A stretch of DNA of 64,000 bases from Escherichia coli (GCF_044647545.1 NZ_CP172818.1); one strand, 5' to 3'. Shown: positions 13,845 to 64,000, numbered from the stretch's first letter. A program made the numbers and translations. The notes: generated by a model from the sequence alone, not told the origin.

Positions 13845-13847
13845 TGA

Positions 13848-16697: not shown

Positions 16698-16776
16698 CCT
16701 ACACTAGCGGGATTCTTTTTGTTAACCCCTACCCCACGCGTACAACCGCGTGGGGAGACGACGCGGATTTTTAACT

Positions 16777-17508: not shown

Positions 17509-17520
17509 CGGAGAAGAATA

Positions 17521-18471: not shown

Positions 18472-18579
18472 CCCACCTTAGCGAGAAGGATCTCGTTGAG
18501 ACTCTGAGTGACAGCGCCCTTCTTTCCACGCATACTGGGCGCTGTTGCTTTTTTGAACCAGGAAACAGAACCTCTGACA

Positions 18580-19559: not shown

Positions 19560-19599
19560 GGCGATTTAAAAGCCTGGCGGATAGTCGTACCATCCCGCC

Positions 19600-19745
19600 A
19601 TCTTGCCGGATGCGGCGTGAACGCCTTATCCAGCACACATCTGGCAGCGGCTGTAGGTCTGATAAGACGCGTTAGCGTCGCATCAGACGTTTATTGCCGG
19701 GTGCTGCGTTTGTATGCCTGATAAGCGTAGCGCATCAGGCATATT
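19600..19745. repeat. REP/BIME palindromic repeat cluster
   Basis: Tandem GCCGGATGCGGCGTGAACGCCTTATCC / GCCTGATAAGCGTAGCGCATCAGGC units between ruvX and yggR. Confidence 0.8.
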
Positions 19746-19771
19746 TACTAAACTAATCAATCACTTTAGCC

Positions 19772-20752
19772 TCACAAACGTCCTTCCCCCACCCGCTGCT
19801 GATAACTCTGCTGAAACGTTAACATCCCCACCTGCTGCCCGGTTTGAATAACATGCGGCAACTGGTGGGTTTTCCCTTCGCGAATCAAATTCCCCACCGC
19901 GGGAGTGTTAATCAGTAATTCAAACAGCGCCACGCGTCCTTCCTGTTTATCCACTTCCAGCTTTTGTGACAGCACTGCCCGTAAACTACCCGCCAGTTGA
20001 TTACGTACGGGATCTTTTTCCTGCGCCGGAAATGAATCCACCAGTCGCTCAACTGCCTGCGCGGCACCACGCGTATGTAAAGTTGCCAGCACCAGGTGTC
20101 CGGTTTCTGCTGCCGTCAGCGCCAGACGGATTGTCTCGCTGTCACGCAGCTCTCCGAGCAAAATCACATCGGGATCTTCCCGCAATGCGGCCCGCAATCC
20201 CGATGCGAACGTCATACAGTGCAAACCAATCTCCCGCTGCTGGATCAAACATCGCTGGCTGGCATAGAGATATTCCACAGGATCTTCCAGCGTCAGAATA
20301 TGCGCATCGGCATGTTGATTGAGATAGCCAACCATCGCCGCCAGCGTGGTAGATTTGCCGCTCCCCGTCGCCCCCGTCACCAGAATCAGGCCATTCTCGC
20401 TCTTGAGTAATTCCGGCAATACCGGTGGCGCACCAAGCTGTTCGAGCTGTGGACAGTGCGAAGGTAACAACCGTAATGCCAGAGAAATACCTTGCCGTTG
20501 CGCGAACGCACTGCCACGCAACCGCTGATTTTCCGCCAGCGACACAGCAAAATCCAGCTGACCATTCTCCAGCAATATTGCCCGCTGATCGTCATCCAGC
20601 CACTCCCGCAGTAGCTCTTCGACGCCCGGCGCATCAAACGGCGCAGCTTCCATTCGCCCGCGAATACGCCATCGTGCGGGCCAGGCGCTGCACAGGTGTA
20701 GATCCGAGACGTTATGCTTTACACTAAGGGCCACAATTTCTTCCATATTCAT
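19772..20752 (-). CDS. yggR: PilT-like type IV pilus retraction ATPase homolog
   Basis: Start at MNMEEIVALSVKHNVSDLHL; Walker A GATGSGKST; 326 aa. Confidence 0.9.
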   Translation of the reverse strand: MNMEEIVALSVKHNVSDLHLCSAWPARWRIRGRMEAAPFDAPGVEELLREWLDDDQRAILLENGQLDFAVSLAENQRLRGSAFAQRQGISLALRLLPSHCPQLEQLGAPPVLPELLKSENGLILVTGATGSGKSTTLAAMVGYLNQHADAHILTLEDPVEYLYASQRCLIQQREIGLHCMTFASGLRAALREDPDVILLGELRDSETIRLALTAAETGHLVLATLHTRGAAQAVERLVDSFPAQEKDPVRNQLAGSLRAVLSQKLEVDKQEGRVALFELLINTPAVGNLIREGKTHQLPHVIQTGQQVGMLTFQQSYQQRVGEGRL

Positions 20753-20769
20753 ACTAAGATCCTCGGAAA

Positions 20770-21474
20770 ATGAACGATATTGCGCATAACCTGGCACAGG
20801 TCCGGGACAAAATCTCAGCGGCTGCAACGCGTTGCGGCCGTTCTCCAGAAGAAATTACGCTGCTTGCAGTCAGTAAAACAAAACCTGCGAGCGCCATCGC
20901 AGAAGCCATTGATGCCGGGCAGCGTCAATTTGGTGAAAACTACGTTCAGGAAGGGGTAGATAAAATTCGCCACTTTCAGGAACTGGGCGTAACAGGATTA
21001 GAATGGCATTTTATTGGCCCGTTGCAGTCTAATAAAAGCCGCCTGGTGGCAGAGCATTTCGACTGGTGTCATACCATCGACCGTTTGCGCATTGCTACCC
21101 GCCTCAACGATCAGCGCCCGGCAGAACTTTCCCCTCTTAACGTACTGATTCAAATTAATATTAGTGATGAAAACAGTAAGTCCGGGATTCAACTGGCAGA
21201 ACTGGACGAGCTGGCAGCTGCGGTCGCTGAACTACCGCGTTTACGTCTGCGCGGGCTGATGGCAATCCCTGCGCCTGAGTCAGAATATGTAAGGCAGTTT
21301 GAAGTTGCACGCCAAATGGCTGTAGCATTTGCCGGACTGAAAACGCGCTACCCGCATATCGACACGCTCTCTCTGGGAATGTCGGACGATATGGAAGCCG
21401 CCATTGCGGCAGGTAGCACGATGGTTCGTATCGGCACTGCAATTTTTGGTGCGCGTGATTACTCTAAAAAATAA
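20770..21474 (+). CDS. yggS: PLP-homeostasis protein YggS
   Basis: 234 aa ORF. Confidence 0.93.
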   Translation: MNDIAHNLAQVRDKISAAATRCGRSPEEITLLAVSKTKPASAIAEAIDAGQRQFGENYVQEGVDKIRHFQELGVTGLEWHFIGPLQSNKSRLVAEHFDWCHTIDRLRIATRLNDQRPAELSPLNVLIQINISDENSKSGIQLAELDELAAAVAELPRLRLRGLMAIPAPESEYVRQFEVARQMAVAFAGLKTRYPHIDTLSLGMSDDMEAAIAAGSTMVRIGTAIFGARDYSKK

Positions 21475-21491
21475 GGAATTAAAGGAACGCC

Positions 21492-22058
21492 ATGAATACG
21501 TTGACTTTCCTGCTTTCAACGGTCATTGAGCTGTATACCATGGTGCTGTTATTACGCATCTGGATGCAGTGGGCTCATTGTGATTTTTACAACCCCTTCT
21601 CACAGTTTGTGGTGAAGGTAACGCAGCCAATTATCGGGCCACTGCGCCGCGTTATTCCGGCAATGGGTCCCATTGATAGCGCCTCGCTGCTGGTTGCGTA
21701 CATTCTCAGTTTCATCAAAGCCATCGTGCTGTTTAAAGTGGTGACCTTCCTGCCAATCATCTGGATTGCCGGTTTACTGATTCTGCTGAAAACCATCGGC
21801 CTGCTGATTTTCTGGGTCCTGCTGGTGATGGCGATTATGAGCTGGGTAAGCCAGGGTCGTAGCCCGATTGAATACGTGCTGATTCAGCTGGCAGATCCGC
21901 TGCTGCGCCCGATTCGCCGCTTGCTACCGGCAATGGGTGGGATTGATTTCTCGCCGATGATCCTCGTTCTGCTGCTGTATGTCATCAATATGGGTGTCGC
22001 AGAAGTATTACAGGCAACCGGAAACATGCTGCTGCCGGGGCTGTGGATGGCGTTATGA
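21492..22058 (+). CDS. yggT: YggT inner-membrane protein
   Basis: 188 aa hydrophobic ORF. Confidence 0.9.
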
Positions 22059-22345
22059 GTGCCGTAACAGTTAATGATGACGGTCTGGTTTTACGGCTCT
22101 ATATTCAGCCGAAAGCCAGCCGTGATTCTATTGTCGGTTTACATGGCGACGAGGTAAAAGTCGCCATTACCGCGCCGCCGGTTGACGGCCAGGCCAACAG
22201 CCATCTGGTGAAGTTTCTCGGTAAGCAATTCCGGGTTGCCAAAAGCCAGGTGGTGATTGAAAAAGGCGAACTTGGCCGCCACAAACAAATTAAAATCATT
22301 AATCCGCAACAAATCCCGCCAGAAATCGCGGCGTTAATTAATTAG
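22055..22345 (+). CDS. yggU: UPF0235 protein YggU
   Basis: Start at [13 protein letters not shown] overlapping the yggT stop; 96 aa. Confidence 0.88.
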
Positions 22346-22352
22346 GTATCAT

Positions 22353-22946
22353 ATGCAAAAAGTTGTCCTCGCAACCGGCAATGCCGGTAAAGTGCGTGAG
22401 CTGGCGTCGCTGCTTAGCGACTTCGGTCTTGATATCGTGGCCCAAACAGACCTCGGCGTAGATTCCGCTGAAGAAACCGGCCTGACCTTTATTGAAAACG
22501 CGATTCTGAAAGCGCGCCATGCGGCAAAAGTGACCGGTTTACCGGCAATTGCCGACGACTCCGGTCTGGCGGTAGATGCGCTGGGTGGCGCGCCGGGTAT
22601 TTACTCCGCGCGTTATTCCGGTGAAGACGCGACCGATCAAAAGAATCTGCAAAAACTGCTGGAAACGATGAAAGACGTACCGGACGACCAACGTCAGGCG
22701 CGTTTCCACTGCGTGCTGGTATATCTGCGTCACGCGGAAGATCCCACTCCGCTGGTATGCCACGGTAGCTGGCCAGGCGTGATTACTCGTGAACCAGCGG
22801 GCACTGGTGGCTTTGGTTATGATCCAATCTTCTTCGTACCTTCCGAAGGGAAAACCGCTGCCGAACTGACCCGCGAAGAAAAGAGCGCCATTTCCCACCG
22901 TGGTCAGGCGTTGAAACTGCTGCTGGACGCTTTACGTAATGGTTAA
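22353..22946 (+). CDS. rdgB: Non-canonical purine dNTP pyrophosphatase
   Basis: 197 aa ORF, Ham1 family. Confidence 0.95.
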
Positions 22947-24075
22947 ATTACCGCCGCTGAGTCTCTACATTCACATCCCGTGGTGCGTGCAGAAATGCCC
23001 GTACTGCGATTTCAACTCTCACGCGTTGAAAGGAGAAGTGCCGCACGACGATTATGTTCAGCATCTGCTTAACGATCTGGACAACGATGTGGCTTACGCT
23101 CAGGGCCGTGAAGTAAAGACAATCTTTATTGGCGGTGGTACGCCGAGCCTGCTTTCCGGCCCGGCGATGCAAACGCTGCTGGACGGCGTGCGTGCGCGTT
23201 TGCCGCTGGCAGCGGATGCAGAAATTACTATGGAAGCGAACCCTGGTACGGTAGAAGCCGATCGCTTTGTCGATTATCAGCGTGCTGGTGTGAACCGCAT
23301 CTCTATTGGTGTGCAGAGTTTTAGCGAAGAAAAGCTGAAACGACTTGGGCGCATTCATGGCCCGCAAGAAGCGAAACGAGCTGCGAAGCTGGCGAGCGGT
23401 TTAGGGTTACGTAGCTTTAACCTTGATTTGATGCATGGGCTGCCGGATCAATCACTGGAAGAGGCGCTAGGCGATCTGCGCCAGGCTATTGAACTGAATC
23501 CGCCGCATCTTTCCTGGTATCAACTGACCATCGAACCTAATACGCTGTTTGGCTCTCGCCCGCCGGTGCTGCCGGACGACGATGCGTTGTGGGATATATT
23601 CGAACAGGGGCATCAGTTATTAACCGCAGCGGGCTATCAGCAGTATGAAACATCCGCTTACGCCAAACCAGGTTATCAGTGCCAGCACAATCTCAACTAC
23701 TGGCGTTTTGGCGACTACATCGGTATTGGCTGCGGCGCGCACGGCAAAGTGACCTTCCCGGATGGGCGCATTCTGCGTACCACCAAAACGCGTCATCCGC
23801 GTGGTTTTATGCAGGGAAGATATCTGGAAAGCCAGCGTGATGTCGAAGCCGCAGATAAGCCGTTTGAGTTCTTTATGAATCGCTTCCGTCTGTTGGAAGC
23901 CGCGCCGCGCGTGGAGTTTAGCCAGTATACTGGCCTTTCTGAAGAAGTTATTCGCTCTCAGTTAGACGAGGCCATCGCTCAGGGTTATCTCACAGAATGT
24001 GCGGATTACTGGCAGATAACGGAACATGGTAAATTATTCTTAAACTCACTTCTTGAATTATTCCTCGCTGAGTAA
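22939..24075 (+). CDS. hemW: Radical-SAM heme chaperone HemW (YggW)
   Basis: 378 aa ORF with CxxxCxxC radical-SAM motif (CVQKCPYC). Confidence 0.93.
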
Positions 24076-25262
24076 TCATTAATGCCGCATGCGGCGTTAA
24101 TCACTTCTATAATAAATATAATTATATATTAAACATATATTAAAATAACACAACAATAATATTCTTCAATCAAAAATAAACAAAAACACACGATGAACCG
24201 AACAACATGCAAAAACAAATCACATCTCAAAAATTTATAACACTCTTCCCCTCCAACAACGAAAACAAAGAAAAATACGTTAAAAAACAAAAAATATCGA
24301 AACAGAAAAACGAAAAAAAAATAAAGTAATGAATCACCACACGAGAACAAGAAAAAAACAACAAAATATATACTAATAACACAGTAGGAAAGGAATAAGA
24401 ATCAACAAAGAAATTTTTACCATCATCAAACGATAACAAACAACCGAAGAGGGAGATAGTTGCCACACCGACACAGAACATCTCTCCACATCACAACAAT
24501 AACAGGTAGCGGAGCACCCCCAATAACCAAAACACAGACCCATACTTGACAACCAGAACAAAAAAACACAACGACAAAAACCAAACAACGAAGAATGAAA
24601 AATGATAAAGAAGAAATTGAATAATTAACACTATCACCCCTACATCAAACTAGAAAAGAAATCGTTGTTAGATATGCGCGGTGTGGTGGTCCTGTGATGC
24701 GCGAACTAGGCGTGACGCCTTTTCTGTCGCCGTCATGCTTGCTCTGGTTGTATGCGTAGTCTGATAAGACGCTCCAAACCACAAAAGCACAGCATCCCAT
24801 TCAGACCAAAGAAGGTTATGATTGCCGGCATTTTCTACCGCTGTCAACGTCTCATCTTGTTATAACTGGATTACTGATACCGCCCTCAAACGTGTTAATT
24901 GTTTTTCCCTACACTGCGCGTTTCTAGCACGCTATTAGCGGGATATGCAAGGGACTAAGAGTCGCGGTAAAAACCGGCATATCAAACGCGGCTACCCGCT
25001 TCAGAAAAAGCAACCTCCAGGCCTAAAGCGTTCGACCTACCAAGTTCTCGTCAAGGCGGCATCGGCGGCATTTTACGCAACGAAGGCCGATCTTCACAAT
25101 TATGATTACCGGGAATAAAATCGCGATTTACCCAAACGATCGAACGGTTACAAATAATTCGCACCGCAAACCAACAATCCAAAAACTAGGATTCAAACCC
25201 ACCAAATAAAAAAAAAAAAAAAAAGGAAAAACAAAAAAAAAAACAACAAAAAAAAAAAAAAG
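24076..25262. other. About 1.2 kb non-coding block with extreme A/C-rich, G/T-poor plus-strand composition, REP-like fragments and a terminal A-rich tract
   Basis: Composition read directly; only low-complexity minus-strand ORFs; ends in A-rich run 25205-25262 abutting the yggM stop. Confidence 0.7.
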
Positions 25263-25265
25263 AAA

Positions 25266-36233: not shown

Positions 36234-36962
36234 ATGCAGCTAACAGGAACTCTTGTGGTCATCGGTCCTTTTATCAACGCAAGTGCAGTATTACTGGGTG
36301 GCGTTCTCGGTGCACTCCTTAGTCAACGCTTACCGGAACGTATCCGCGTCTCCATGACATCAATTTTTGGTCTGGCATCGCTGGGGATTGGTATTTTACT
36401 GGTGGTGAAATGCGCCAACCTTCCGGCGATGGTTTTAGCAACCTTACTCGGTGCATTAATCGGCGAAATGTGTCTGCTGGAAAAAGGGGTCAATACCGCG
36501 GTCACCAAAGCACAAAATCTGTTTCGCCACTCACGTAAGAAGCCAGCGCATGAATCTTTTATTCAGAATTATGTCGCGATTATTGTCCTGTTTTGCGCCA
36601 GCGGCACCGGGATCTTCGGGGCGATGAACGAAGGGATGACCGGCGATCCGAGTATTTTAATCGCCAAGTCATTTCTCGATTTCTTTACGGCGATGATCTT
36701 CGCCTGCTCGCTGGGTATTGCGGTGTCGGTGATTAGCATTCCATTACTGATCATCCAGTTAACACTGGCGTGGGCTGCCGCGCTGATATTACCGCTGACC
36801 ACACCGTCGATGATGGCAGACTTCAGCGCCGTAGGCGGTTTATTGCTGCTGGCAACCGGATTACGCATCTGTGGCATTAAAATGTTCCCGGTGGTCAACA
36901 TGCTTCCAGCACTCCTTCTGGCAATGCCGCTTTCCGCCGCCTGGACCGCCTGGTTTGCCTGA
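36234..36962 (+). CDS. yqgA: DUF554 inner-membrane protein YqgA
   Basis: 242 aa hydrophobic ORF immediately upstream of pheV. Confidence 0.85.
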   Translation: MQLTGTLVVIGPFINASAVLLGGVLGALLSQRLPERIRVSMTSIFGLASLGIGILLVVKCANLPAMVLATLLGALIGEMCLLEKGVNTAVTKAQNLFRHSRKKPAHESFIQNYVAIIVLFCASGTGIFGAMNEGMTGDPSILIAKSFLDFFTAMIFACSLGIAVSVISIPLLIIQLTLAWAAALILPLTTPSMMADFSAVGGLLLLATGLRICGIKMFPVVNMLPALLLAMPLSAAWTAWFA

Positions 36963-37067
36963 CAATGCGTGCAATAGCGGCAAAGTGATGATAGATTGTG
37001 CAGTCTGCAGTAAATTGAAGAAATTTGATTGACGAGACGAGGCGAATCAGGTTTAATGCGCCCCGTT

Positions 37068-37143
37068 GCCCGGATAGCTCAGTCGGTAGAGCAGGGGATT
37101 GAAAATCCCCGTGTCCTTGGTTCGATTCCGAGTCCGGGCACCA
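37068..37143 (+). tRNA. pheV: tRNA-Phe (anticodon GAA)
   Basis: GCCCGGATAGCTCAGTCGGTAGAGCAGGGGATTGAAAATCCCCGTGTCCTTGGTTCGATTCCGAGTCCGGGCACCA, canonical cloverleaf with 3' CCA. Confidence 0.97.
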
Positions 37144-37154
37144 ATTCATAAGAA

Positions 37155-37182
37155 CCCGCCCACAAGGCGGGTTTTTGCTTTT
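37155..37182 (+). terminator. Rho-independent terminator of pheV
   Basis: CCCGCC-CACAA-GGCGGG followed by TTTTTGCTTTT. Confidence 0.85.
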
Positions 37183-37288
37183 GGATCTGACAATAACCTT
37201 CACGAAAAAAATTAGCTTATAAAGTCTGGGGGAATTACTCTCGCCACGTTAACGAGAGTAATTTTATTGATATTAATCTCCTGATACC

Positions 37289-37825
37289 TTACCCCCGTCC
37301 AAACTCCAGTCGCTGCACATTCACCATCCCAGGCTTCTCAGCAGCACTGACATCAATTTGTGTCACCCGCAGCGCATATTTTTCATCCAGTGCTTTTAAC
37401 CAGTTCAGCAGGTCATTAAACACCACAGGTTCTATCCAGACTTGAATATTCTCCCCACGCTCGGCTATCCGCTTGATGACCACCGAGTGCGCGGAAGCAC
37501 TGTCACTGATGACCCGCGATACCTGCGCAGGCGTTGTTGTGGCAGATTTTCGCGCTGCAATAATATCCGGCGCAGTGCTCTTCAGTCGCGCGTTCATCGC
37601 CACGAGCTGCTGCAACATCGTCTCCTGTTGCTCAATCCGTTCGCTCAACGGCTGCCAGATGACGACGTAATATCCGACGCTAAACAGGAACACCACCGCT
37701 GCCAGTAACATGCCCTTTTCACGCGGAGAACGCCCCGCCAGGTGTTGTGTCAGCCAGTGTTCGCCACGGCTTAACTGGCGTTCACGCCATTGCTGAAAAT
37801 AGTGAATAAATTTATCGCGTAACAT
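37289..37825 (-). CDS. yghD: Type II secretion GspM-like protein (cryptic)
   Basis: 178 aa ORF, position downstream of pheV. Confidence 0.8.
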   Translation of the reverse strand: MLRDKFIHYFQQWRERQLSRGEHWLTQHLAGRSPREKGMLLAAVVFLFSVGYYVVIWQPLSERIEQQETMLQQLVAMNARLKSTAPDIIAARKSATTTPAQVSRVISDSASAHSVVIKRIAERGENIQVWIEPVVFNDLLNWLKALDEKYALRVTQIDVSAAEKPGMVNVQRLEFGRG

Positions 37826-37826
37826 G

Positions 37827-52102: not shown

Positions 52103-53155
52103 TCAAAGTTCCGCGTACATGCGACCGGGGTTAAACACGCCGCAAGGGTCGAGCTGCTGTTTAAGCTGCTGGTGATAGCGGAATAAAGGAGCCGGTAGCG
52201 GGGCAAAGCCACCATCTCCGGCACTAAAGCGGGTCGCATGACCGCCCGCGTTGCGGGCGATGCGATGGATTTGATTGTCATCGGCTGTCGATTTCAGCCA
52301 GTGTAGCGCCCCGCCCCAGTCGATCAGTTGCTCGCCGGGTAAATCTATCATCGGCGCATCGCTGGGTAAGGAAATGCGCCATAAGGTACCTGGTAACGAG
52401 AAGAACGGCAGTTGTTGTTCACGCAATTGCTGCCAGAACTGACCCGCAACCTCTTCGCCCCCCAGCAGTTCACGCGCTGCTTTTACCGATCCTTCGCCGC
52501 CCTCAAGGCGGATCCACAACGCATTGTCGAAGTAACATAAGCCACTAATGGGTAATGGCTGGAGTTGCCACTGGGCGATTTCATTCATGGCTTCTTGCAG
52601 GCTGATTTCCCGACGCAGACTCAGGGTGGCGCGTGGTCGCGGTAACACTTTCATCGAGATTTCAGTGAGCACACCAAGACAACCGTAGCTTCCGGCCATT
52701 AATCGCGAGAGATCGTATCCGGCAACGTTTTTCATCACTTCGCCACCAAAACGCAGATGTTTTCCAGTGCCGGTAATGATGCGCGTGCCGAGGACAAAAT
52801 CGCGGACCGAACCGCTCCACGGACGACGCGGCCCCGCCAGCCCGCAGGCGACCATCCCGCCCCAGGTGGCTTCTTCACCATAATGCGGCGGCTCGCAGGG
52901 GAGCATTTGCCCGGCGCTCTCCAGCGCTGCTTCAATCGCCACCAGCGGCGTTCCGGCACGAGCGGTTATCACCAGCTCGGTCGGGTCGTAATTAACAATG
53001 CCGCGATGACAACGCACATCTAGCGTTTGCCCGGTGACAGGACGACCTAAAAAGGCTTTGCTATTGCTGCCCTGAATCACCAACGGCGTTTTATCGCTAA
53101 TCGCCTGATTCACCTGCTCCAGCAGCGCCTGGCTGTAATCACACTCGCGTAGCAT
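52103..53155 (-). CDS. glcE: Glycolate oxidase FAD-binding subunit
   Basis: 350 aa ORF. Confidence 0.93.
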   Translation of the reverse strand: MLRECDYSQALLEQVNQAISDKTPLVIQGSNSKAFLGRPVTGQTLDVRCHRGIVNYDPTELVITARAGTPLVAIEAALESAGQMLPCEPPHYGEEATWGGMVACGLAGPRRPWSGSVRDFVLGTRIITGTGKHLRFGGEVMKNVAGYDLSRLMAGSYGCLGVLTEISMKVLPRPRATLSLRREISLQEAMNEIAQWQLQPLPISGLCYFDNALWIRLEGGEGSVKAARELLGGEEVAGQFWQQLREQQLPFFSLPGTLWRISLPSDAPMIDLPGEQLIDWGGALHWLKSTADDNQIHRIARNAGGHATRFSAGDGGFAPLPAPLFRYHQQLKQQLDPCGVFNPGRMYAEL

Positions 53156-54654
53156 CAGAAACGCTCCAGTTCAGGAAAAGGTAAATGACCGTGATGCACA
53201 TGCATGGCACCAAATTCAGCACAGCGGTGTAGCGTGGGAATGTTTTTCCCAGGGTTCAGCAAACCATCGGGGTCAAACGCCGCCTTGACCGCATGGAAGG
53301 TCGTGATTTCATCGCTGTTGAACTGGGCGCACATTTGATTGATTTTTTCTCGCCCGATGCCATGTTCGCCACTGATGCTGCCGCCAACTTCAACGCAGAG
53401 TTCGAGGATCTTCCCGCCCAGCTCTTCCGCGCGGGCAAATTCACCGGGTTCGTTGGCATCGAAAAGGATTAACGGGTGCATGTTGCCATCTCCGGCATGA
53501 AAGACGTTGGCAACACGTAAATCATATTGCTGCGATAAACGGGCAATGCCTTCCAGTACGCCAGGCAGGGCGCGACGCGGGATGGTGCCATCCATGCAGT
53601 AGTAATCCGGGGAGATACGTCCTACCGCCGGGAACGCATTTTTGCGACCGGCCCAGAAACGTACGCGCTCTGCTTCGTCCTGTGCCAGACGGACGTCAGT
53701 CGCGCCCGCTTTCAACAAGATGTCGTTAACCCGCTCGCAGTCTTCCTGTACGTCAGACTCCACGCCGTCCAGCTCGCATAACAAAATCGCTTCGGCGTCG
53801 ACGGGATAACCGGCATGAATAAAATCTTCCGCCGCGCGGATCGACAGGTTATCCATCATCTCCAGCCCGCCGGGGATAATGCCATTGGCGATGATGTCAC
53901 CAACCGCAAGTCCGGCTTTTTCTACCGAGTCAAAGCTGGCTAACAGAACCCGCGCCACGGGCGGCTTCGGCAGCAGTTTTACCGTCACTTCGGTGGTCAC
54001 GCCGAGCATACCTTCCGATCCGGTGAACAGCGCCAGCAGGTCAAAACCAGGTGAATCCAGCGCGTCCGATCCAAGCGTCAGTGCCTCGCCGTCCAGCGTT
54101 TGCACTTCAATTTTCAGCAGGTTATGTACGGTCAGACCATATTTCAGGCAGTGGACGCCGCCGGCATTTTCAGCCACATTGCCGCCAATGGAACAGGCGA
54201 TTTGTGAGGAAGGGTCCGGTGCGTAGTAGAGATTATGCGGTGCAACGGCCTGGGAGATCGCCAGGTTACGCACGCCTGGCTGCACGCGCGCGCGGCGACC
54301 AACGGGGTTAATGTCGAGGATCTCTTTAAAGCGCGCCATCACCAACAACACACCTTTTTCCAGCGGCAGCGCGCCACCAGAAAGCCCGGTGCCTGCACCA
54401 CGGGTCACCACCGGTACACGCAGGCGATGGCAGACAGCCAGAATCGCTGTCACCTGTTCCATTTGCTTAGGCAGAACAACCAGTAATGGACGCGTGCGAT
54501 ACGCGCTCAACCCGTCACACTCGTAAGGAATGATCTCCTCATCGGTATGCAGGATCTCAAGTCCAGGGACATGCTCACGCAGTGCCATCAGTACCGATGT
54601 GCGGTCGACATCGGGTAAAGCGCCATCAAGACGCTCTTCGTACAAGATGCTCAT
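53155..54654 (-). CDS. glcD: Glycolate oxidase subunit GlcD (FAD-linked)
   Basis: 499 aa ORF. Confidence 0.95.
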   Translation of the reverse strand: MSILYEERLDGALPDVDRTSVLMALREHVPGLEILHTDEEIIPYECDGLSAYRTRPLLVVLPKQMEQVTAILAVCHRLRVPVVTRGAGTGLSGGALPLEKGVLLVMARFKEILDINPVGRRARVQPGVRNLAISQAVAPHNLYYAPDPSSQIACSIGGNVAENAGGVHCLKYGLTVHNLLKIEVQTLDGEALTLGSDALDSPGFDLLALFTGSEGMLGVTTEVTVKLLPKPPVARVLLASFDSVEKAGLAVGDIIANGIIPGGLEMMDNLSIRAAEDFIHAGYPVDAEAILLCELDGVESDVQEDCERVNDILLKAGATDVRLAQDEAERVRFWAGRKNAFPAVGRISPDYYCMDGTIPRRALPGVLEGIARLSQQYDLRVANVFHAGDGNMHPLILFDANEPGEFARAEELGGKILELCVEVGGSISGEHGIGREKINQMCAQFNSDEITTFHAVKAAFDPDGLLNPGKNIPTLHRCAEFGAMHVHHGHLPFPELERF

Positions 54655-54904
54655 GAGTAGGCTTCGCTTTGTTGTGTTGTGTGGCAGCTGATTTTTGCGC
54701 GCTGCTTCTGTGAACAGTTATTAAGCGGGCTTTTCGTTTTCGTCTATCTCTTTAGCTACCGGTCAGACCATTTTTTTTCCAGCTCTGTGACCTTGTCTTG
54801 GTTAACTCAATGTTAAATTGATGTAACATAATCACTTACGTGATGTGCGTGTTTTGCGAGTTAAGAACAGAAAAATTGGTCCTACCTGTGCACGAGGTCC
54901 GGGA
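54655..54904. promoter_or_regulatory. Divergent glcD / glcC promoter region
   Basis: Intergenic between divergently oriented glcD and glcC; by position. Confidence 0.4.
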
Positions 54905-55669
54905 ATGAAAGATGAACGTCGCCCTATTTGCGAAGTGGTTGCAGAGAGTATCGAACGGTTAATTATCGACGGCGTACTGAAGGTCGGTCAGCCGCTTCCC
55001 TCGGAACGTCGACTGTGTGAAAAGCTCGGCTTCTCACGCTCCGCACTGCGTGAAGGGCTGACCGTGCTGCGCGGGCGCGGGATTATTGAAACGGCGCAGG
55101 GTCGCGATTCTCGTGTCGCACGGCTTAATCGGGTGCAGGACACCAGCCCGCTGATCCATCTGTTCAGTACGCAGCCGCGAACGCTGTACGATCTGCTCGA
55201 CGTTCGCGCATTACTGGAGGGCGAATCGGCAAGGCTGGCGGCAACGCTGGGAACGCAGGCTGATTTTGTTGTGATAACCCGCTGTTATGAAAAAATGCTC
55301 GCCGCCAGTGAGAACAACAAAGAGATTTCGCTGATCGAACATGCGCAGTTGGATCACGCTTTCCATCTCGCCATTTGTCAGGCTTCTCACAATCAGGTGC
55401 TGGTGTTTACGCTGCAATCATTGACCGATCTGATGTTTAATTCAGTGTTTGCCAGCGTAAATAATCTCTACCATCGACCACAGCAAAAAAAGCAGATCGA
55501 TCGCCAGCATGCGCGGATCTACAACGCGGTGTTGCAGCGGCTGCCGCACGTCGCCCAGCGCGCAGCACGCGATCATGTGCGGACCGTGAAAAAGAATCTC
55601 CACGATATCGAGCTGGAAGGCCACCATTTGATTCGCTCGGCGGTGCCGCTGGAGATGAACCTGAGTTAG
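54905..55669 (+). CDS. glcC: GntR-family transcriptional activator of the glc operon
   Basis: Start at MKDERRPICEVVAESIERLI; 254 aa. Confidence 0.94.
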   Translation: MKDERRPICEVVAESIERLIIDGVLKVGQPLPSERRLCEKLGFSRSALREGLTVLRGRGIIETAQGRDSRVARLNRVQDTSPLIHLFSTQPRTLYDLLDVRALLEGESARLAATLGTQADFVVITRCYEKMLAASENNKEISLIEHAQLDHAFHLAICQASHNQVLVFTLQSLTDLMFNSVFASVNNLYHRPQQKKQIDRQHARIYNAVLQRLPHVAQRAARDHVRTVKKNLHDIELEGHHLIRSAVPLEMNLS

Positions 55670-55675
55670 CTGGTA

Positions 55676-56950
55676 TTAAATCTGCTTTTCATACAATCGG
55701 TAACGCTTGTACGGCTCCGCCCCAATGCGTTCCAGCATGTTATTCATGCCTGTATTGGTTTCGAGGATCCATGACATCTCCAGCGCATCGATCTTCCGGC
55801 GGGCAAACGGATCGCGTAAGGCTTCAATCAATAACAGCGCAATCACCGGGCCGATGCGGCTGAACTGATACTCGTCGCGCACGCCCATCAGCGGTACTCG
55901 CGCAGTTCGCACACCGCTGACTTTCAAACGCCACAGCAATTTTGCCCAGCCGAAGGGAAAGAGCGATCCGTTCAGATCGGCAATCGCCTCGTTGATGTTC
56001 GGCAAGCCGACAATAAACGCGCAGGGTGCAGAATCAATCTCAGCGATATAGATCATATCGTCCGGCACCAGATATTTAAGTTGATCGCCCATGGTCGCGA
56101 ATTCATGTTCGGTAAACGGCACAAATCCCCAGTTGTGCTGCCAGCCAGAGTTGAAAATCTCACGCAGGATCTGCATCTCTTCGGCAAACCGCTGACGATT
56201 GATGCAGCGAATGGTCACCTTTTTGCGCACCTGATCCATCAGTTTTTTTAGCGCCGGAGAGAAAGTGAGATCGGTTCGCTGCATCCACCACGCCAGTAAA
56301 TCAATGCCTTTGTGATAACCCAGTTGTTCAATATGCGCGGCATACCACGGTTTGCCGTGTGGCATCATCGCACAGGGTGGTGTGTCAAAACCTTCAATCA
56401 GTAATCCGCTTTCCTGATTGATATTCAGGCTGAAAGGACCGCTGATCTTACTTGCACCTTGTGACTTCAACCACGCTTCCGCTGCGCCAAACAACGCGGC
56501 AAAAACCTGCGGATCATCAATGGCGTCAATCATGCCGAAATGACCGGTATCTTTGCCGTAACGCTCGCGGTGCAAGGTATCTATTTGCGCGGTAATACGC
56601 CCAACTATCTGCCCCGCTTTTTTTGCCACCCACGCCTGCCAGATGATATGGTCCGTCCCCGGATTTTTCGCAGACAAATGCTCGTTGCGTTCAATGAATA
56701 AAGGGGGTATCCAGTTTGGATCGTCGGGATAAAGTGATGACGGAAAAGCGATAAATGCCTTAAGGTCATTTTTATTAAAGACGTCGCGAAACTGAAGACA
56801 ACCGGAAATTAACTTAAAACACTCCGAACGAATTTTATAATAAAAAACGATCGCGTCATACCGAAACAATACGATTCGTAAGTTTTTTTCCATATCCTTA
56901 TCGCGTCCCTCATTCAATCGTTTTAAGCCAGGATCCCTGGTTAACGGCAA
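55676..56950 (-). CDS. yghO: YghO, uncharacterised protein (possibly GNAT-like acyltransferase); start uncertain (alternative ATG at 56893)
   Basis: 424 aa ORF in the expected position after glcC; fold assignment is a guess. Confidence 0.7.
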   Translation of the reverse strand: MPLTRDPGLKRLNEGRDKDMEKNLRIVLFRYDAIVFYYKIRSECFKLISGCLQFRDVFNKNDLKAFIAFPSSLYPDDPNWIPPLFIERNEHLSAKNPGTDHIIWQAWVAKKAGQIVGRITAQIDTLHRERYGKDTGHFGMIDAIDDPQVFAALFGAAEAWLKSQGASKISGPFSLNINQESGLLIEGFDTPPCAMMPHGKPWYAAHIEQLGYHKGIDLLAWWMQRTDLTFSPALKKLMDQVRKKVTIRCINRQRFAEEMQILREIFNSGWQHNWGFVPFTEHEFATMGDQLKYLVPDDMIYIAEIDSAPCAFIVGLPNINEAIADLNGSLFPFGWAKLLWRLKVSGVRTARVPLMGVRDEYQFSRIGPVIALLLIEALRDPFARRKIDALEMSWILETNTGMNNMLERIGAEPYKRYRLYEKQI

Positions 56951-57900
56951 TACGAACGATTCCTCACGTCCATTCGAACGATATCCCTACCTCCATACAC
57001 CTCCCACACCCTTTCCGGCTCATTATCACCCACCGAAGAGGCTAATCACGTCTATAACACGACGGCATTAAATTACCCGCGACCGCATCGCTCCTCTACC
57101 ATGAAGGGACGGTCGGCTTGACCCCCCCACGCACCATAGATTACGCACCAATCACTCCCCAAGCTTAAAGACATAAAAACCGGCACCTCCCCCGCCCATG
57201 AATTTCCACGCCCTGAATGAAAGAAATCCCTGAACTGGATCTTTCTCTGCGCGTCGCGGTATTTCAGAACCCATCTCCAGAACAGACTCTATCAATTTGC
57301 CATGCCCCACATTAACTATGATCATTCAACCCACGCATACAACGAATACATTTTAACCACCCTTTTAACATACCAACCGATTCCTCCACTCCACCGAAAA
57401 TTATACGCCTACCTCCATACACCCCCACACCGTTTCCCGTCATTACACCCACCGAACACCGAACACTCTATAACACACGCATTAAATACCCCCGACCCCT
57501 CTCCCCTTTCACCAATAATTCGGCTTTCTCCTGACCCCCCCACCACATAATTACATAATTTACTCCAATTAAAATCATAAAAAATCCGGCATTTCTCCTC
57601 TATGAATCCACTAATAAAAAATCTAATGGATCTCCCCTTACAAACACCCAAACAACCATCAATAATTTATTAAACAAACTCAACACAAAAATTCACTTTT
57701 ATGAACTCTTAACGAATATCCACACCAAACAGTAAACCCCTCAAACACGCCTATCGATTTTCCGTCAAGTAAAACTTTTGAACAGATTGAAAATCCGCAG
57801 TGAAGCATATCCGGCGCGGCGGAATTTAGTGCAGATGCTTCATCACTCCTCTCAACCTTTAACGAAATCCAATCTCAAATCAGTAAACCTCCCCGGTCAA
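56940..57900. repeat. Degenerate direct repeats in a G-poor, C/A/T-rich non-coding block
   Basis: Two diverged copies about 440 bp apart (from about 56940 and 57380) sharing the motif CGATTCCTC...CCTACCTCCATACACC...CACCCACCGAA...CATTAAAT; no coherent ORF. Confidence 0.6.
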
Positions 57901-58024
57901 AACGCCTATCACTTCTCAACTGCGGCAAAGCTGGAAATTATTAAATCCAGCACTGTGAGCGGTGTATGCCTTGGCGGAACAGTTTCGGTAAGCCACCTCA
58001 TCTCCGGTCCGTCTATGACTTACT

Positions 58025-58300
58025 TTGGCGACCAGTTCGCAAGCAATTGCCGCGACGGGCTGGTTAGACACCGGCGACCTCGGTTATCTGCTGGACGGTT
58101 ATCTGTATGTCACCGGACGCATTAAAGATCTGATTATTATTCGTGGCCGTAATATCTGGCCGCAGGATATTGAATATATAGCGGAACAGGAACCGGAAAT
58201 TCATTCTGGCGATGCGATTGCTTTTGTTACCGCCCAGGAAAAAATCATTTTGCAGATCCAGTGTCGGATCAGCGACGAAGAACGTCGCGGGCAGGTTTCC
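58025..58300 (+). pseudogene. Fragment of an acyl-CoA synthetase / AMP-binding enzyme (C-terminal region only)
   Basis: Translation ...GWLDTGDLGYLLDGYLYVTGRIKDLIIIRGRNIWPQDIEYIA... matches the conserved C-terminal region of adenylate-forming enzymes; upstream frame is lost. Confidence 0.6.
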
Positions 58301-58558
58301 CACCCCGCACGCGGCCAAAATGAAAATGGAGTTACCCCTGCTAGCGATTTTCGATCTCTCCACACCACACCCTTTTACGGCCCCTCCAACCCCACCCGTG
58401 CGCAAGCGGAAACACGTAAACATTAGCGTAGGCTTCTAGTCTCAATGTTCATGAACCCCAATCATTAATCAAACTGACACTGTGACGGTGGCGAGCGGTA
58501 CTAGCTTTAAAGGTATTAATATTATAACCTGCTCGCCCGCGGCTTTCACGTTCGCGCA

Positions 58559-58840
58559 TTGACGCGTACTGCCCGCGCTCACGTCAATGATAATCTCCCC
58601 TCGGTGGGGGGTTGGCTGCAGGATACTCATTCACTTAGCGAGCTGGTTGCCGGAGCCAGCGTAGTGGTCCATTGCGCCGGGCAAGTGCGCGGGACAAGCA
58701 CCACGCTAATCGACCAGTCTAACCTTACCAAGCACCAAAGAGAGCTGCTAGCGCCAACGGTGTCCGTTTTTTTCTACCCTTTTCTCTTTCTATCTTCAGT
58801 TCCCCCGTACCCAAACGCGCTATACTGCTCTGAGCAATGA
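58559..58840 (+). pseudogene. Possible fragment of an NAD-dependent epimerase/dehydratase or SDR
   Basis: Short VVHCAGQV stretch resembling the DxVxHxAA region of Rossmann epimerases; weak. Confidence 0.25.
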
Positions 58841-59764
58841 CAATCAGTAATGGCGGACCAAATGACGCTGGTGGTGGACCACCTTACAGTCGGCGTTTTT
58901 CCCGCGAAAAAAGTGTTTAAACCCCGCGTTGACGGGATGAAACCCCTCTTTCTGTGACTACTTGGCGCCCTACAGACACAGCTTTCTTTGCCGGATATCA
59001 CCCTTTTTTTTCAGCAGGTGACCAATTAAGCCGGAGAAGCGCCTCAATGATACAGACGCAAAAATACAAGCAAACCTATGAATTATGCGATGGCGTCGCC
59101 GGCGGCTATGACTGGCAACGCGTACAGCAACTTGCCGCCGACGCCCGTTGCGGTTCCCTGGATGGTGTTCATTGCCGGTACTCACCGGCCTTGCGGATAT
59201 CAGTACCGCGTTGAGTCGCCTGGCAGGTAAAGAACCTATGCTCTACCCGTCGAAAATTCGTGAATTAACCCACGCTACCTTTCGTCAACTTCTAACCCTG
59301 TTGTTGAAGATAGTTAGCCTGGTCCCCGGATTACCCAGCAAGACGTATTACTTAACTTGTTTTTTGGTCTGTCACGTTTATATGTTTAATAATGTAATAA
59401 TAATAAATTGTAAAATTTCCTTTTTACAGGATTTTGTCGATATAGTGTAGTTATTCCGAAAGAGGGGGATCTCGTAAGCGCTATAGCCATTGCGTCGATG
59501 AACGTGCTGGGACTCTTTCTAATGGTTGGAGCCCGTAACGATGTTTCCATACCGATTCATATTTTGATGGCTATTAATACCCCTGCGGATGTCATAACCA
59601 CTGTGCTATCATGGGTGGCGCTTCTATCATGGGGCTATAAGGTAGATGTGCGCGACTAGCTAGAGGGCGACTGCGCTTTCGAGCCACCGCATTTTAGCCA
59701 TTACGGGTTACTCACCTGTTTATGATGTTTATTTCCGCCACCGAAGGCCGGATCGGCAATAAAA

Positions 59765-60259
59765 ATGATATCTGGCCGGGACCGATTTTTCGGTTTTGTA
59801 ACCTTTAATCATGATGCCATAGGCGAAGGTCAGGCCGCGTTAGCGGCCCAAGGTACCGGCACCACCGGTTCTCGTATGGCAAACGGCAGTTATGCGCCGC
59901 ACCTGGCGTTAGAGAAAGAGATTGCCGAGTTTTTCAATCGCCCTACCGCTATCGTTTTTTCAACCGGTTATACCGCTAATTTAGGCGTCATCAGCGCACT
60001 TGCCGACCATAACGCCGTGGTGTTACTGGATGCCGACAGCCACGCCAGTATTTATGACGCCTGTTCTCTCGGTGGCGCGGAAATTATTCGTTTCCGCCAT
60101 AACGATGCTAAAGATCTGGAACGGCGGATGGTTCGCCCCGGTGAACGGGCGAAAGAGGCGATTATCATCGTTGAGGGTATCTACAGCATGCTCGGTGACG
60201 TTGCGCCGTTAGCGGAAATTGTTGATAAACATCTGCGTGTGGGTGATTTTTGTTTCTAG
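59765..60259 (+). pseudogene. Fragment of a PLP-dependent alpha-oxoamine synthase (BioF/Kbl/serine palmitoyltransferase family)
   Basis: Translation ...GTGTTGSRMANGSYAPHLALEKEIAEFFNRPTAIVFSTGYTANLGVISALADHNAVVLLDADSHASIYDACSLGGAEIIRFRHNDAKDLERRM... is typical of the family; N- and C-termini missing. Confidence 0.65.
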
Positions 60260-60849
60260 TAAGGCCCTTTGGTTTGCGTTGTAGGCGGAAAGGGGGGGCG
60301 AACTGCTTAAACTTGTCGGGGTTGAGGTTATTGTGATTTTTATCGTCGGCACCTTCAGTAAGTCTCTCCCCTAGTTTCGCTTTTTTTGTCTGGTTTCGAA
60401 AGAGGTAAAAGTGGTGCGATGCCACCCCCCCCCATATTTTTTTCCCCCCTCTCTTTCCCCCCCCTCGACGCGCCCGTGCCGTTAACAATGAGCGCCATAC
60501 CACCAGAGCCGGGGCAAAAGCTGATGGAGAAGGATAATCACCTGTATCACTGTGTCGATATACAAGGATTGGATTTTAGGTTACATATAAGTATTAGAGT
60601 GCTGGTAATAATCATAATCAAATAGGACGGGGTACGTATCCGGCTCTAGCGTGTGTTTCTTTCGTTGATCTTTTATGTGCATCTTATCCTCCCCCCTGCC
60701 GGGCATCACGCCGTCGCGCTGTACCCTAAAGCGTGCACACTGCTGAGAGTAGACAAATCGATGCCATCATTCAGGCATTTGCTACTCTGAAGCAGTAATG
60801 TGAGCCCGCCGTGGTGTTGCGCCACGGCGGGTTTAATGTGTTGTGTGAT

Positions 60850-62050
60850 ATCACTTACACCAGGCTCAACGCCACCAGCACAAACGCTATCGGTAAACCG
60901 AGCGCGGTAACAGGTGCGTCACGCAAATAGCAATCCCAGATTGACCATGATTTGATAGCTGATCCAGGTGAGTAAGCCAACGATGACACCTACAGCGAGA
61001 CGGCTACCCATCCCTCGGGAGCGCGGGGCGCTAAAAATAAACTGGACAGCCAGGAAAAATAACCCCAGGGGTAGGAATGGTTTCCCCAGTTTTTCCAACA
61101 TGGCAAGGCGTTATCCGTGGTGGGTTGCCCCGTTTCCTGGCAATTATGGGAGTTATGGATTAAGTGGAGGGACGGAAAATATATTCCCCCGTCGTTATAA
61201 CTTTTCAATTTTTATACGTGTAAAGCGCTTGCCCGGGGCAATTTTATGATATTTTCCGAGTGTTTTTGCGCCTCTCCCCTATTTTTTCTTTCACTATTAC
61301 ACCATGCAGGATCCACGTTTTGTCGTCTTCAATGGTGGCACTGCGTGCATAAATGTAGGATTCGAGCGAAAGATTACCACGAGATTGTAATATCTCTCCG
61401 CCCACAGGGGCTCCCCGTGCTTGTTGCGCGTTTACCGCGACAAATTTTCTACCCCGCCCCTCCCACAGCGCATTTTGGGGGTAGTGACCTCCTCCCCCCC
61501 ACGGCGCTGGCAGTCGATTTGATTTGCAGCGCCTGTTGCTGCAATGGCGACGCCACCCACTCATCTATCGCGCCTAACGAAACAGTCCACAATATCCCGG
61601 CAACCAGCGCCACCAGTGCAATACGGAAGATAGAAAACCCAGTGCTGCGAATGGCGGTAAGCTCACTGTTTTTCGATAACTGCCCCAGGCCAACAATCCC
61701 TCCCAATAATGCGATAAACGGCGAAAGTTCGACCAGTGTACGCGGTAAGGTCATCAGCACCACCAGCACCGCCTGAGTCCAGCGATAACCGCCCGGGCTG
61801 ACATCATCCAGTTCGTTAATCAGGTTGAAGGTGGTAAAAAGCGGCAGCAATAGCCCTGCGGCGGCGGCAAAACCGAGAAAGAGATGACGGATTAAATAGC
61901 GACTGAAAACGTTCTTCGGGAAAATTTCTGGAGCAAAGAGAAGTCGCGTGCGACCAGCATCAGCAGGCCCATTAGCATGAGTCCGGGTACTAACCACAAA
62001 CCAGGAAGGATGGGGACGCGTTTGCGCCCGTTAGCGCACTCGGCAGACGT
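60850..62050 (-). pseudogene. LptG-like (YjgP/YjgQ family) permease, frameshifted
   Basis: ORF 61449-61997 gives ...SRYLIRHLFLGF...LTAIRSTGFSIFRIALVALVAGILW...; ORF 60919-61101 matches the LptG C-terminus in another frame. Confidence 0.55.
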
Positions 62051-62981
62051 CGCCGCCATAAAAAATGGCAATAAACAGCAACGTCAGTGGCAATAACGTT
62101 GTAAAATCGCCCTTGCCGCGGTTTTACCCGACTTAATGAAATGGCCAGCAGCGCCATCAACAATGCGGTCAGGCCACGGCTTTGTCGCCATTGCAGTTCG
62201 GCATGATCGGCAGGAAAGGCGGAGCGCGCCAGCTCCGTGACCGATTTTGCTTTGCGTTTGACGTTAGGGCTTTGATCCAGCGGATTCAGATGTAATTGCA
62301 GATTACGGTAGATCTGTTCGTTGTCGTCACGCCCCTGATGATCGAGAAGATAGGCGGTGCCATTCAACAAAATGATCGTTGGTTAGTTGAGTGGTCAACC
62401 ACACCAATCGAACGGACGCGGGAAAAACGTGTGCGATCGGTAGGAGAAGGATAAATCAGTGCGTGAGTCAGTCGAGCATTTATTTTATTAACCGACCGTC
62501 AAAGGAACATTCGTTCGTTAGTTTTCGTTTGTATTTTATTTCTTCCCCAACAAGTGGAGATCCACCAGCTACGGCTACGGCTGTTCCAGCCGATAAAAAT
62601 TCTGAGAATCCCACGGCCGACGATCCAACGACGGAAGGGGGATAAAAATACTTATTGGTATTATCAGAAAATGAAGGGCGGCTTTCAACCGTCGCCCAGG
62701 GCCCCCCCCGAGAGAGAGCTGGAGGTTATTAGCGGGTAGATATCCGTCCGACCGAGAGTCCAACCGACAGATACATACCGACAGGCAAGTACATCCCCAT
62801 CGCGAGCAGTACGCTGTATGTAACGATCGCTATCCCGAACATCAAGAGCTAAGGTCCCATTTGCCGCTTCGGTCAGATAACGCTGTGCGGAGTAGCTGGC
62901 GAAAATAAAGATCAGAAAACCGACGATAATCAGCACCAGACGGCGCGTACCACGCATGATGTAGTGTTCAACCAGCTTCAT
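61990..62981 (-). pseudogene. LptF-like (YjgP/YjgQ family) permease, frameshifted
   Basis: N-terminus MKLVEHYIMRGTRRLVLIIVGFLIF (62981) and C-terminal ...ELQWRQSRGLTALLMALLAISLSRVKPRQGR (ORF 61990-62370) resemble LptF but lie in different frames. Confidence 0.55.
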
Positions 62982-63011
62982 CTCACTAACACCCTCAATC
63001 CTTTGAATTTT

Positions 63012-63573
63012 TTATTCATTGATCAGTTTCTGCGCCAGCGCAATGACATGATCTACCTCTTCCGGCGTCAGGCTGCCGTCCTTTGCCCACTGAATTTGCC
63101 CGTCTTTATTCAGCACCAGAATGGTTGAACTCTGCTCCGGCAACCGCCAGGCAACGCGTCCCAGTCCATTGCCGTCAATAACGAATTGCGCCCACGGATA
63201 GCGGCGTTTATTTTTTTCGATTTTGCCAACGACAAAATAGCCAGTACCAAAGATGGCATCATCGGTGTTCACAATGGTGGTGGGCTGAAAACGATCCTGC
63301 GGAAAGTTTGCCGCTTCAACCGCTTTAATTAACAGTGGCTTTTTTTTTTTCGCGGCCACTCACCCGGCGCTATATTCGGTATAACGCGGTTTTCCCCCGC
63401 GATGTGTGCTGTTCCCCACTTTGTGGTGTGTATTGTCGTCGCTCTATTCAGAAGGATCGCCCCGTTCCTGGGTATTAAACGGGGGTAACCGTTTTGCCAG
63501 TGACAAAATTGTGTGCCTGCACACCCTGGGCTAAGAGCATGATAATCAGCGCAATAATCAAACGAGATGACAT
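63012..63573 (-). pseudogene. YtfJ-family periplasmic protein paralog, frameshifted near homopolymer runs
   Basis: C-terminal ORF 63012-63359 (...QDRFQPTTIVNTDDAI...RRYPWAQFVIDGNG...VLNKDGQIQWAKDGSLTPEEV) and N-terminal signal peptide MSSRLIIALIIMLLAQGVQAHNFVTGKTV from ATG 63573 resemble E. coli YtfJ but are out of frame. Confidence 0.55.
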
Positions 63574-64000
63574 CATTGCTCCGGTTATAGCGGAAAACGC
63601 GAAATCAGCAGCTCTAAGCGCTGGCGAATATCGCTATCCAGCGCCACCGGTGCATTATACGACCGGGCGGTTTTCCTAATAATCCCCACCATTGTGGCCG
63701 TGTTTTCCCCCATCAGGCCATTAATGGCGGCGAGGAAGCGGGAAATCTTTTATTGCTTTTGTTTATCAAGCGATCTTAAGGTGTCGTAATAAGAAACCTG
63801 CTGACTGATGATTTTTCGCACATCATGAAATTCCCTGCCGGTTAGTCGCGGTTTGGCAATTATCTTTTCATGTGAATTATTTTTTTTCGATAAAAATAAA
63901 AAAACTTCCGATTTTTGAATTGGTAAGGCTTAATGAAAATTCCACCAAGGACAAGACCGAAAAGTTTAATAAAACCCTAAACAATTTCCCTTAAACCAAC

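Follow-up and report, generated by a model that had tools for sequence, protein, structure and literature searches.

The anomalous block that adjoins yghO in this Escherichia coli sequence is not a real feature. Within the 64,000-nucleotide stretch of DNA that was analysed (the window), we found that the two 'tandem copies' in this block align to the same template and are two renderings of a single-copy stretch of a fatty acyl-AMP ligase (FAAL) gene. Judged by sequence comparison, everything from position 56779 to position 64000 (at least 7.2 kb) reads as a real E. coli chromosome of the ECONIH1 lineage that has been rendered anew with losses, and the block is the first and worst part of this stretch. 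Whatever its source, the block is almost certainly a data artefact of non-biological origin.

Two diverged direct copies in a G-poor block

The original prediction described two diverged direct copies of a unit of about 300 bp, about 440 bp apart, in a G-depleted block at 56940–57900. Local self-alignment bore out the two copies: copy 1 (56916–57242) and copy 2 (57345–57633) are identical at 243 of 336 alignment columns (72%), with an alignment score of 110 compared with 16.6 ± 2.4 for dinucleotide-preserving shuffles (z of about 39). The unit measures approximately 290–330 bp, as predicted, but the spacing was not as described: there is no fixed offset of 440 bp, and the distance from copy 1 to copy 2 is 429 bp at the start and falls to 391 bp. 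A repeat search found seed families in register at spacings of 422, 421, 421, 414 and 404 bp. The local alignment gave two copies of the diverged unit only, and Tandem Repeats Finder (TRF), run on 56500–58800, reported micro-repeats of 7, 8 and 13 bp and nothing with a period near 420.

The depletion of G on the plus strand was likewise evident, the G fraction being 0.13 at 56779–58045 compared with 0.25 where the window is intact, with a GC skew of −0.32 to −0.77 over 56800–57900. The anomalous block spans 56779–58045 and is wider than first described. It does adjoin yghO, but it is not merely upstream of the gene, as its onset lies within the first 13 codons of yghO. No open reading frame (ORF) longer than 82 aa lies wholly within the block, and the longest plus-strand ORFs in 56779–58426 are 82–133 aa. 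The block had been called neither coding nor IS-like. There is no IS5 end at the junction; 'neither coding' is correct as far as the lack of an ORF goes, but not as to origin, because the block derives from the coding sequence of the FAAL gene.

The native FAAL locus and its two renderings

The window carries glcD, glcC and yghO, and the last faithful sequence before the break is native yghO on the minus strand, from its stop codon to codon 14 (55676–56778). Positions 52782–56778 of the window correspond to positions 1–3997 of the ECONIH1 locus (L006) at 100.000% identity with 0 mismatches, and yghO is annotated there at L006 2895–4037 on the minus strand. The longer segment 46500–56778 matches at least 12 complete genomes, among them ECONIH1 (NZ_CP009859.1), at 100% identity, and 9600–24000 is also 100% identical to the ECONIH1 lineage. 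In ECONIH1-type genomes, an intergenic region separates yghO from a divergently transcribed cluster that encodes FAAL (562 aa), an NAD-dependent epimerase, an acyl carrier protein, the serine-palmitoyltransferase-like spt, lptG-like and lptF-like genes, a ytfJ-family gene and others. The stretch that is doubled in the window occurs just once, within an intact FAAL gene, in ECONIH1, NCM3722 and Z1323HEC0477. K-12 MG1655 lacks the FAAL cluster; in that strain, IS5LO lies within the 5′ end of yghO and the neighbouring DNA is deleted. The approximately 7 kb missing from MG1655 occurs in NCM3722 and many other strains (PMC3045373).

Fidelity ends between 56778 and 56779, at the same base at which IS5LO starts in K-12 MG1655. 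Identity to the native sequence is perfect through 56778 (L006 3997), which is also where the homology between MG1655 and ECONIH1 stops, and it collapses at the next base. The three junctions share catttttattaa and then part: it is followed by ggaaggtgcgaac in MG1655 (...ttattaa/ggaaggtgcg), by ttactttttc in ECONIH1 (...ttattaa/ttactttttc) and by agacgtcgcg in the window (...ttattaa/agacgtcgcg). The window therefore resembles the MG1655 locus, with its IS5LO (insH9) insertion and deletion, in leaving the native sequence at the IS5 start base and in having all of the garbling past 56778 within the segment that MG1655 lacks. It differs from that locus in having no IS5: the IS5 terminal sequence GGAAGGTGCGAAC was not found at the junction, where the window has AGACGTCGCG, and garbled native DNA stands in its place. 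An IS5 remnant or an MG1655-type IS5 insertion is thus ruled out. Instead, the break is a jump in the text from L006 3997 to approximately L006 4528 over a shared 8-mer, ATTTTTAT, which is present at the break (L006 3989) and again 528 bp onward within the FAAL gene (L006 4517); it is directly past this second occurrence that the window resumes.

From this point, the block can be aligned globally to the FAAL gene in two successive passes on the plus strand. Pass 1 (56779–57300), which holds copy 1, renders L006 4528–5363: of its 522 bases, 508 match the gene in sequence order, 13 are mismatched and 1 is extra, and 315 of the 836 native bases are omitted. The omissions are strongly biased by base (63% of G, 42% of T, 27% of C and 16% of A), and the alignment score of 225 compares with −9.4 ± 7.8 for shuffles (z of 30). 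Near 57300, the text jumps back by approximately 520 bp at a shared 5-mer, TCAAT, from about L006 5355 (CATCAATTCG) to about L006 4823 (GTCAATGCCG). Pass 2 (57301–58045), which holds copy 2, is a second and worse rendering, of L006 4838–5706, in which 584 bases are identical and 60 are mismatched; it omits 225 native bases and adds 101, of which 48 are A. Here the omission was 56% for G, 27% for T, 15% for C and 3% for A, and the score was 211 compared with 26 ± 7 for shuffles (z of 26). A chain of collinear 9-mers runs through pass 2 (window 57406, 57520, 57759, 57916 and 58046 to L006 4938, 5105, 5370, 5558 and 5707, respectively); A/C-rich filler occupies approximately 57600–57750, after which the rendering improves until it is exact at 58046. 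The roughly 100 bp between the copies (57243–57344) also map to the FAAL gene.

The impression of diverged tandem copies arises because the text jumps back by about 520 bp and renders the same FAAL stretch again. Native bases lost from copy 1 are still present in copy 2, such as TCGGCTTTCTCCTGACCCCC at 20 of 20 positions, which argues that both were drawn from the native template and excludes copy 2 as a simply diverged copy of copy 1. Some errors are common to both copies, for example a G dropped in CCAGTAC and the change of ATCGCG to ACCG. The depletion of G results from native Gs being omitted rather than substituted: G to A accounts for only 1 of the 32 substitutions in copy 1, and a bisulfite-like or deaminase-like G-to-A conversion is thereby excluded, the Gs not having been converted. 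The block thus follows the native FAAL gene (ECONIH1_RS17690, WP_001326490.1) in order and strand in both passes, but it lacks about one-third of the bases, the first approximately 80 bp of the gene and the promoter region, renders one stretch twice and retains no reading frame. A functional FAAL ORF (approximately 562–576 aa) is absent, the native 576 aa comparing with 82–133 aa for the longest ORFs in 56779–58426.

Database searches returned no known intact element and led only to the FAAL gene. Using 56779–57900 or 56779–58045 as the query, the best match among 5,426 complete E. coli genomes covered 34% of the block at 68.8% identity and lay on the FAAL gene; 4,102 genomes matched the block once or twice only, at no more than 34% coverage. 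Three plasmid records matched, each in the FAAL gene at approximately 69–72.5%, and no phage matched the block. Rfam, searched with 56500–58400 on both strands at E values up to 1, gave no match, which leaves a structured non-coding RNA recognizable by its covariance models without a candidate. A 29-base pattern common to both copies matched none of 16.6 million genome contigs or 241 million metagenome records, but both collections contain few E. coli isolates, which makes this weak evidence. As would be expected of computationally generated or re-rendered sequence, the block is absent from the public collections searched and its flanks reproduce public genomes exactly.

These results bear on the three readings offered by the original prediction. 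A decayed minisatellite, which direct copies at a period of approximately 390–430 bp do resemble, fails on the presence of two copies only, the lack of a TRF array and the lack of any repeat at this locus in related genomes; both copies map to one FAAL stretch that is single-copy in 4,102 natural genomes, and what sets them apart is bases omitted from a shared external template, not point divergence of one from the other. An eroded integration-site or target-site duplication fails as well, with no mobile element between or beside the copies, FAAL sequence between them, no non-native ORF of 90 aa or more, no phage match and a flank that is 100% identical to genomes with the intact gene. Only the third option, misassembled or computationally generated sequence, holds.

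The patchwork tail and other garbled patches

The first run that is again exact to the native FAAL gene is 249 bp long (58046–58294, plus strand, equal to L006 5707–5955). Beyond it, a run list and a 100-bp identity profile revealed a patchwork from 58295 to 64000, in which exact runs alternate with blocks of about 67% identity; exact runs in the tail measure 43–500 bp. The tail spans the 3′ end of the FAAL gene, the epimerase, acyl carrier protein, spt, lptG, lptF and ytfJ-family genes, and the next gene. In its degraded columns, 67.2% of positions are identical, with 842 substitutions (267 transitions and 575 transversions), 155 deletions and 85 insertions. The substitution rates in these blocks at codon positions 1, 2 and 3 are 0.29, 0.25 and 0.28, with a transition-to-transversion ratio (Ti/Tv) of 0.46, compared with 48, 35 and 211 substitutions and a Ti/Tv of 2.8 in the natural divergence of the same genes. 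All of the reading frames are broken and no native tail gene stays intact: the longest tail ORF is 182 aa, compared with 576, 304, 390, 386, 356 and 187 aa for the native genes (native ORFs of at least 90 aa, 187–576 aa), and the tail holds no ORF of 90 aa or more other than fragments of native genes.

The lineage behind the tail can be recognized. In the well-preserved stretches of the tail, the ECONIH1-lineage allele is present at 24 of 24 sites that differ from K-12 and at 99 of 100 sites that differ from strain Z1323HEC0477, which indicates that the underlying text is the true ECONIH1-lineage sequence. K-12 NCM3722 is excluded as the underlying strain, as all 24 discriminating sites follow ECONIH1. 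The noisy blocks change the net length by only −16 to +4 bp, and the native text is rejoined in register after them.

Comparison with ECONIH1 identified three further garbled patches in the window, all of them G-poor on the plus strand (G fraction 0.04–0.15, compared with 0.22–0.25 in the native sequence). At 4833–5311, only 479 bp stand for the 914 bp of a prohibitin-family gene; at 9495–9565, 71 bp with a run of 35 As at their end take the place of a 900-bp gene; and at 24109–25265, a TRAP transporter operon of 3.2 kb has shrunk to 1.16 kb of A-rich text, in which one stretch is recognizable at 73% identity and A runs reach 11–17. All four garbled patches, including the block at 56779–58045, fall in DNA that K-12 MG1655 lacks, and their edges lie 0–60 bp from breakpoints of homology between ECONIH1 and K-12, with exact agreement at 56778, 9566 and 25266. 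The left edge of the prohibitin patch is not as neat and fits a dependence on K-12 less well: an 8-bp loss lies exactly at the breakpoint, but heavy garbling begins 257 bp past the end of K-12 homology.

The window also lacks the approximately 103-kb pheV island. It has the exact gspL/gspC deletion junction of K-12, yet carries non-K-12 alleles within approximately 85 bp of that junction. Among complete genomes, none that is collinear with 36800–39800 exceeds 96.7% identity, whereas split matches to ECONIH1 reach 99.9–100%, which leaves no natural strain with the K-12-like pheV/gsp structure of the window.

Origin of the artefact

The block points to an artefact rather than evolution because more than 35% of its positions are changed while the adjoining 10 kb are identical to several strains, and because of the bias towards omission of single Gs, the codon-blind errors and the recurrence of the same garbling at three unrelated loci bounded by K-12 breakpoints. 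We know of no mutational process that produces omissions with the base hierarchy G > T > C > A. The source is probably a computational re-rendering, in which a neural network or another algorithm with a strong K-12 prior re-emitted, reconstructed or generated the sequence; this judgement follows from the fact that all four garbled patches lie in non-K-12 DNA. Such a process would have had the true strain sequence as its input, since the strain alleles are kept and the text re-synchronizes in register, and its fidelity would depend on whether the DNA is present in K-12 MG1655. The comparison shows a text that is exact up to 56778 and then skips approximately 530 bp at the shared 8-mer. The FAAL gene is next rendered with about one-third of its bases left out, mostly G and then T, until the place is lost at about 57300; a jump back of some 520 bp at the shared 5-mer starts a worse re-rendering, which drifts into A/C-rich filler, re-synchronizes at 58046 and continues as an alternation of exact and noisy text.

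Collapse into homopolymers or low-complexity sequence is a reported failure of long generation by autoregressive genome models (bioRxiv 10.64898/2026.01.17.700093). The window resembles the output of such models in its re-run with drift, its collapse into A-rich or A/C-rich text, its A runs of 11–35 and its jumps at short words, although this is a resemblance only. Unlike free generation, the window keeps strain alleles and rejoins the true sequence in register, for which true input is needed. A free-running generative model should not reproduce 24 of 24 strain alleles or rejoin in register, and a set-up that takes the true sequence as input would be unusual. The errors in the tail look like uniform random noise, which a simple noise channel would fit equally well.

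An error of sequencing or assembly is a less probable source, which we consider possible but rather unlikely. It would involve very noisy or partly corrected long reads, filling in where a K-12-guided or K-12-trained step such as reference-guided scaffolding, polishing or base calling had failed, and two low-quality renderings of one stretch of the FAAL gene that were concatenated. Several of our observations resemble what this would produce. The patchwork of perfect and roughly 67% blocks is similar to partly corrected long reads, the net block lengths are nearly in register and the true strain alleles are kept; garbling tied to non-K-12 DNA is expected if K-12 served as the reference, and a K-12-type structure carrying the alleles of another strain is what a reference-projected consensus gives. 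The errors shared by both copies are also like systematic base-calling errors. However, MG1655 lacks the entire tail, and a consensus guided by it cannot supply 7 kb of in-register sequence. The omission of 56–63% of Gs compared with 3–16% of As, specific to the plus strand in all four patches, is likewise at odds with a two-strand consensus, which should be symmetric, and to our knowledge a strand-specific omission bias of G > T > C > A matches the error profile of no sequencing platform. Moreover, in the early patches the sequence is shortened by a factor of 2 to 12 and runs out into poly-A, which is not expected of read noise, and an assembly would not usually place exact 500-bp runs beside 67% blocks.

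The natural readings, even taken jointly (duplication with decay, hypermutation and mosaic recombination), are very unlikely to explain the block. A scenario in which part of the FAAL gene was duplicated in tandem and then decayed, be it as a pseudogene, as a decayed minisatellite or as an eroded duplication, formally predicts what we see in the copies, namely two direct copies with private losses and some common changes, and jumps at short shared words do occur in slippage or microhomology events. It is nevertheless highly improbable: the adjacent 10.3 kb has zero substitutions relative to strains with the intact gene, which leaves no time for a change of more than 35%. In addition, the changes are almost all omissions of single bases, biased in the order G > T > C > A, the downstream errors are codon-blind, similar garbling occurs at three unrelated loci in the window and none of the 5,426 complete genomes contains an intermediate form. 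A naturally decayed pseudogene is rejected on similar grounds, with a 10.3-kb flank that is 100% identical, 315 omissions against 13 substitutions, and a Ti/Tv in the tail of 0.46 against 2.8.

We give scarcely any credence to the block being the real DNA of an unusual isolate, in which G (and T) would have been deleted strand-specifically from recently acquired non-core DNA and re-copied by template switching, so that scrambled remnants of genes would lie beside core genes left untouched. Targeted hypermutation by a deaminase, a diversity-generating retroelement or some process that removes G would account for a base bias that is strong and strand-specific, but we regard it as extremely improbable. 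Diversity-generating retroelements make adenine-specific substitutions relative to a template repeat; here A is the best-preserved base, the opposite of what such mutagenesis would leave, the changes are omissions rather than substitutions, and a variable region of this kind is accordingly rejected. Apart from fragments of native genes, the tail has no ORF of 90 aa or more, and the same bias is seen in unrelated patches whose limits are K-12 breakpoints. There is similarly next to no chance that the alternation of 100% and approximately 67% blocks arose as a mosaic, through recombination with the homologous but divergent cluster of another species, as a real homologue would keep its frames and its third-position bias, whereas here every frame is broken and the codon positions change at equal rates, and E. 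coli genomes, plasmids and phages hold nothing closer to the block than the E. coli FAAL gene.

The main value of these results is in quality control. A repeat, a G skew and a lack of ORFs together mimic an exotic non-coding element, and this element vanishes when the block is set against real genomes. No biological interpretation is advisable for 56779–64000 or for 4833–5311, 9495–9565 and 24109–25265, and findings in these regions need the same check; the pheV/gsp structure at about 37150–38800 is also suspect. Such sequence can be flagged elsewhere by a reusable fingerprint, which combines flanks that are exact with copies that skip bases, restarts at short shared words, collapse into A-rich text, noise that ignores codon position and a fidelity that follows presence in K-12.

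yghO and a near-repeat upstream of it

The listed yghO ORF encodes 424 amino acids on the minus strand (window 55676-56950), and its 5′ end is an artefact. Garbled text has overwritten codons 1-13 and the promoter, and the ORF extends through this text as far as a TTG at window 56950; the true start codon would be expected at window about 56818.

Within the second of the two base-skipping renderings of the native fatty acyl-AMP ligase (FAAL) gene, a small internal near-repeat occupies window 57693-57866, with a spacing of 150-155 bp (pairs 57693/57843 and 57744/57899). Another re-run of the native text is probably not the explanation, because in the best global alignment the members fall on successive native positions. 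Chance similarity, or an echo of low-complexity text within the rendering, probably accounts for the near-repeat.

Further garbled patches

A second garbled patch (window 4562-5311) lies in a prohibitin-family gene that is absent from K-12. It begins with an 8-bp loss at window 4562, coinciding exactly with the breakpoint of K-12 homology, followed by T/A-rich garbling at window 4833-5170, in which T/A stands in place of G/C. At window 5254-5312, approximately 490 native bp are gone and A/C-rich filler takes their place. At a hypothetical gene (positions 8947-9678 of L007, a segment of the comparison genome ECONIH1), 71 bp of C/A-rich text at window 9495-9565 stands for a 900-bp native segment. 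This text closes with a run of 35 A (window 9530-9564), and native text returns at window 9566, the exact point at which K-12 homology resumes.

The TRAP transporter operon, also absent from K-12, has shrunk from 3.2 kb to 1.16 kb of A-rich low-complexity text (window 24109-25265). Its single recognisable base-skipping stretch, window 24788-25137, corresponds to L007 26556-26996 with 73% identity and 97 gap positions. The patch contains A runs of 11-17, followed by an exact re-join to native sequence at window 25266.

K-12 structure with alleles of another lineage

K-12 seemed at first to be the source because it is likewise 100% identical to the ECONIH1 lineage across window about 53400-56778, which is a natural shared segment; upstream of about 53400, the two differ by approximately 2-3%. 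Suspect structure is found at window 37150-37284 and about 38789. The pheV island and kps region, approximately 103 kb in ECONIH1, are absent from the window, and the gspL/gspC deletion junction is exactly that of K-12 (199-bp ungapped match), with non-K-12 alleles at most approximately 85 bp away. No complete E. coli genome collinear at the pheV/gsp region exceeded 96.7% identity. Together, these comparisons indicate that the window is a chimera of K-12 structure and alleles of another lineage.

The patchwork tail

The patchwork tail (window 58295-64000) covers the FAAL 3′ end and epimerase, ACP, spt, lptG, lptF and ytfJ-family genes. Codon-blind noisy blocks of approximately 67% identity are interleaved here with exact runs, the longest of which is 500 bp (window 62838-63337). 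Features called anywhere in this tail are suspect.
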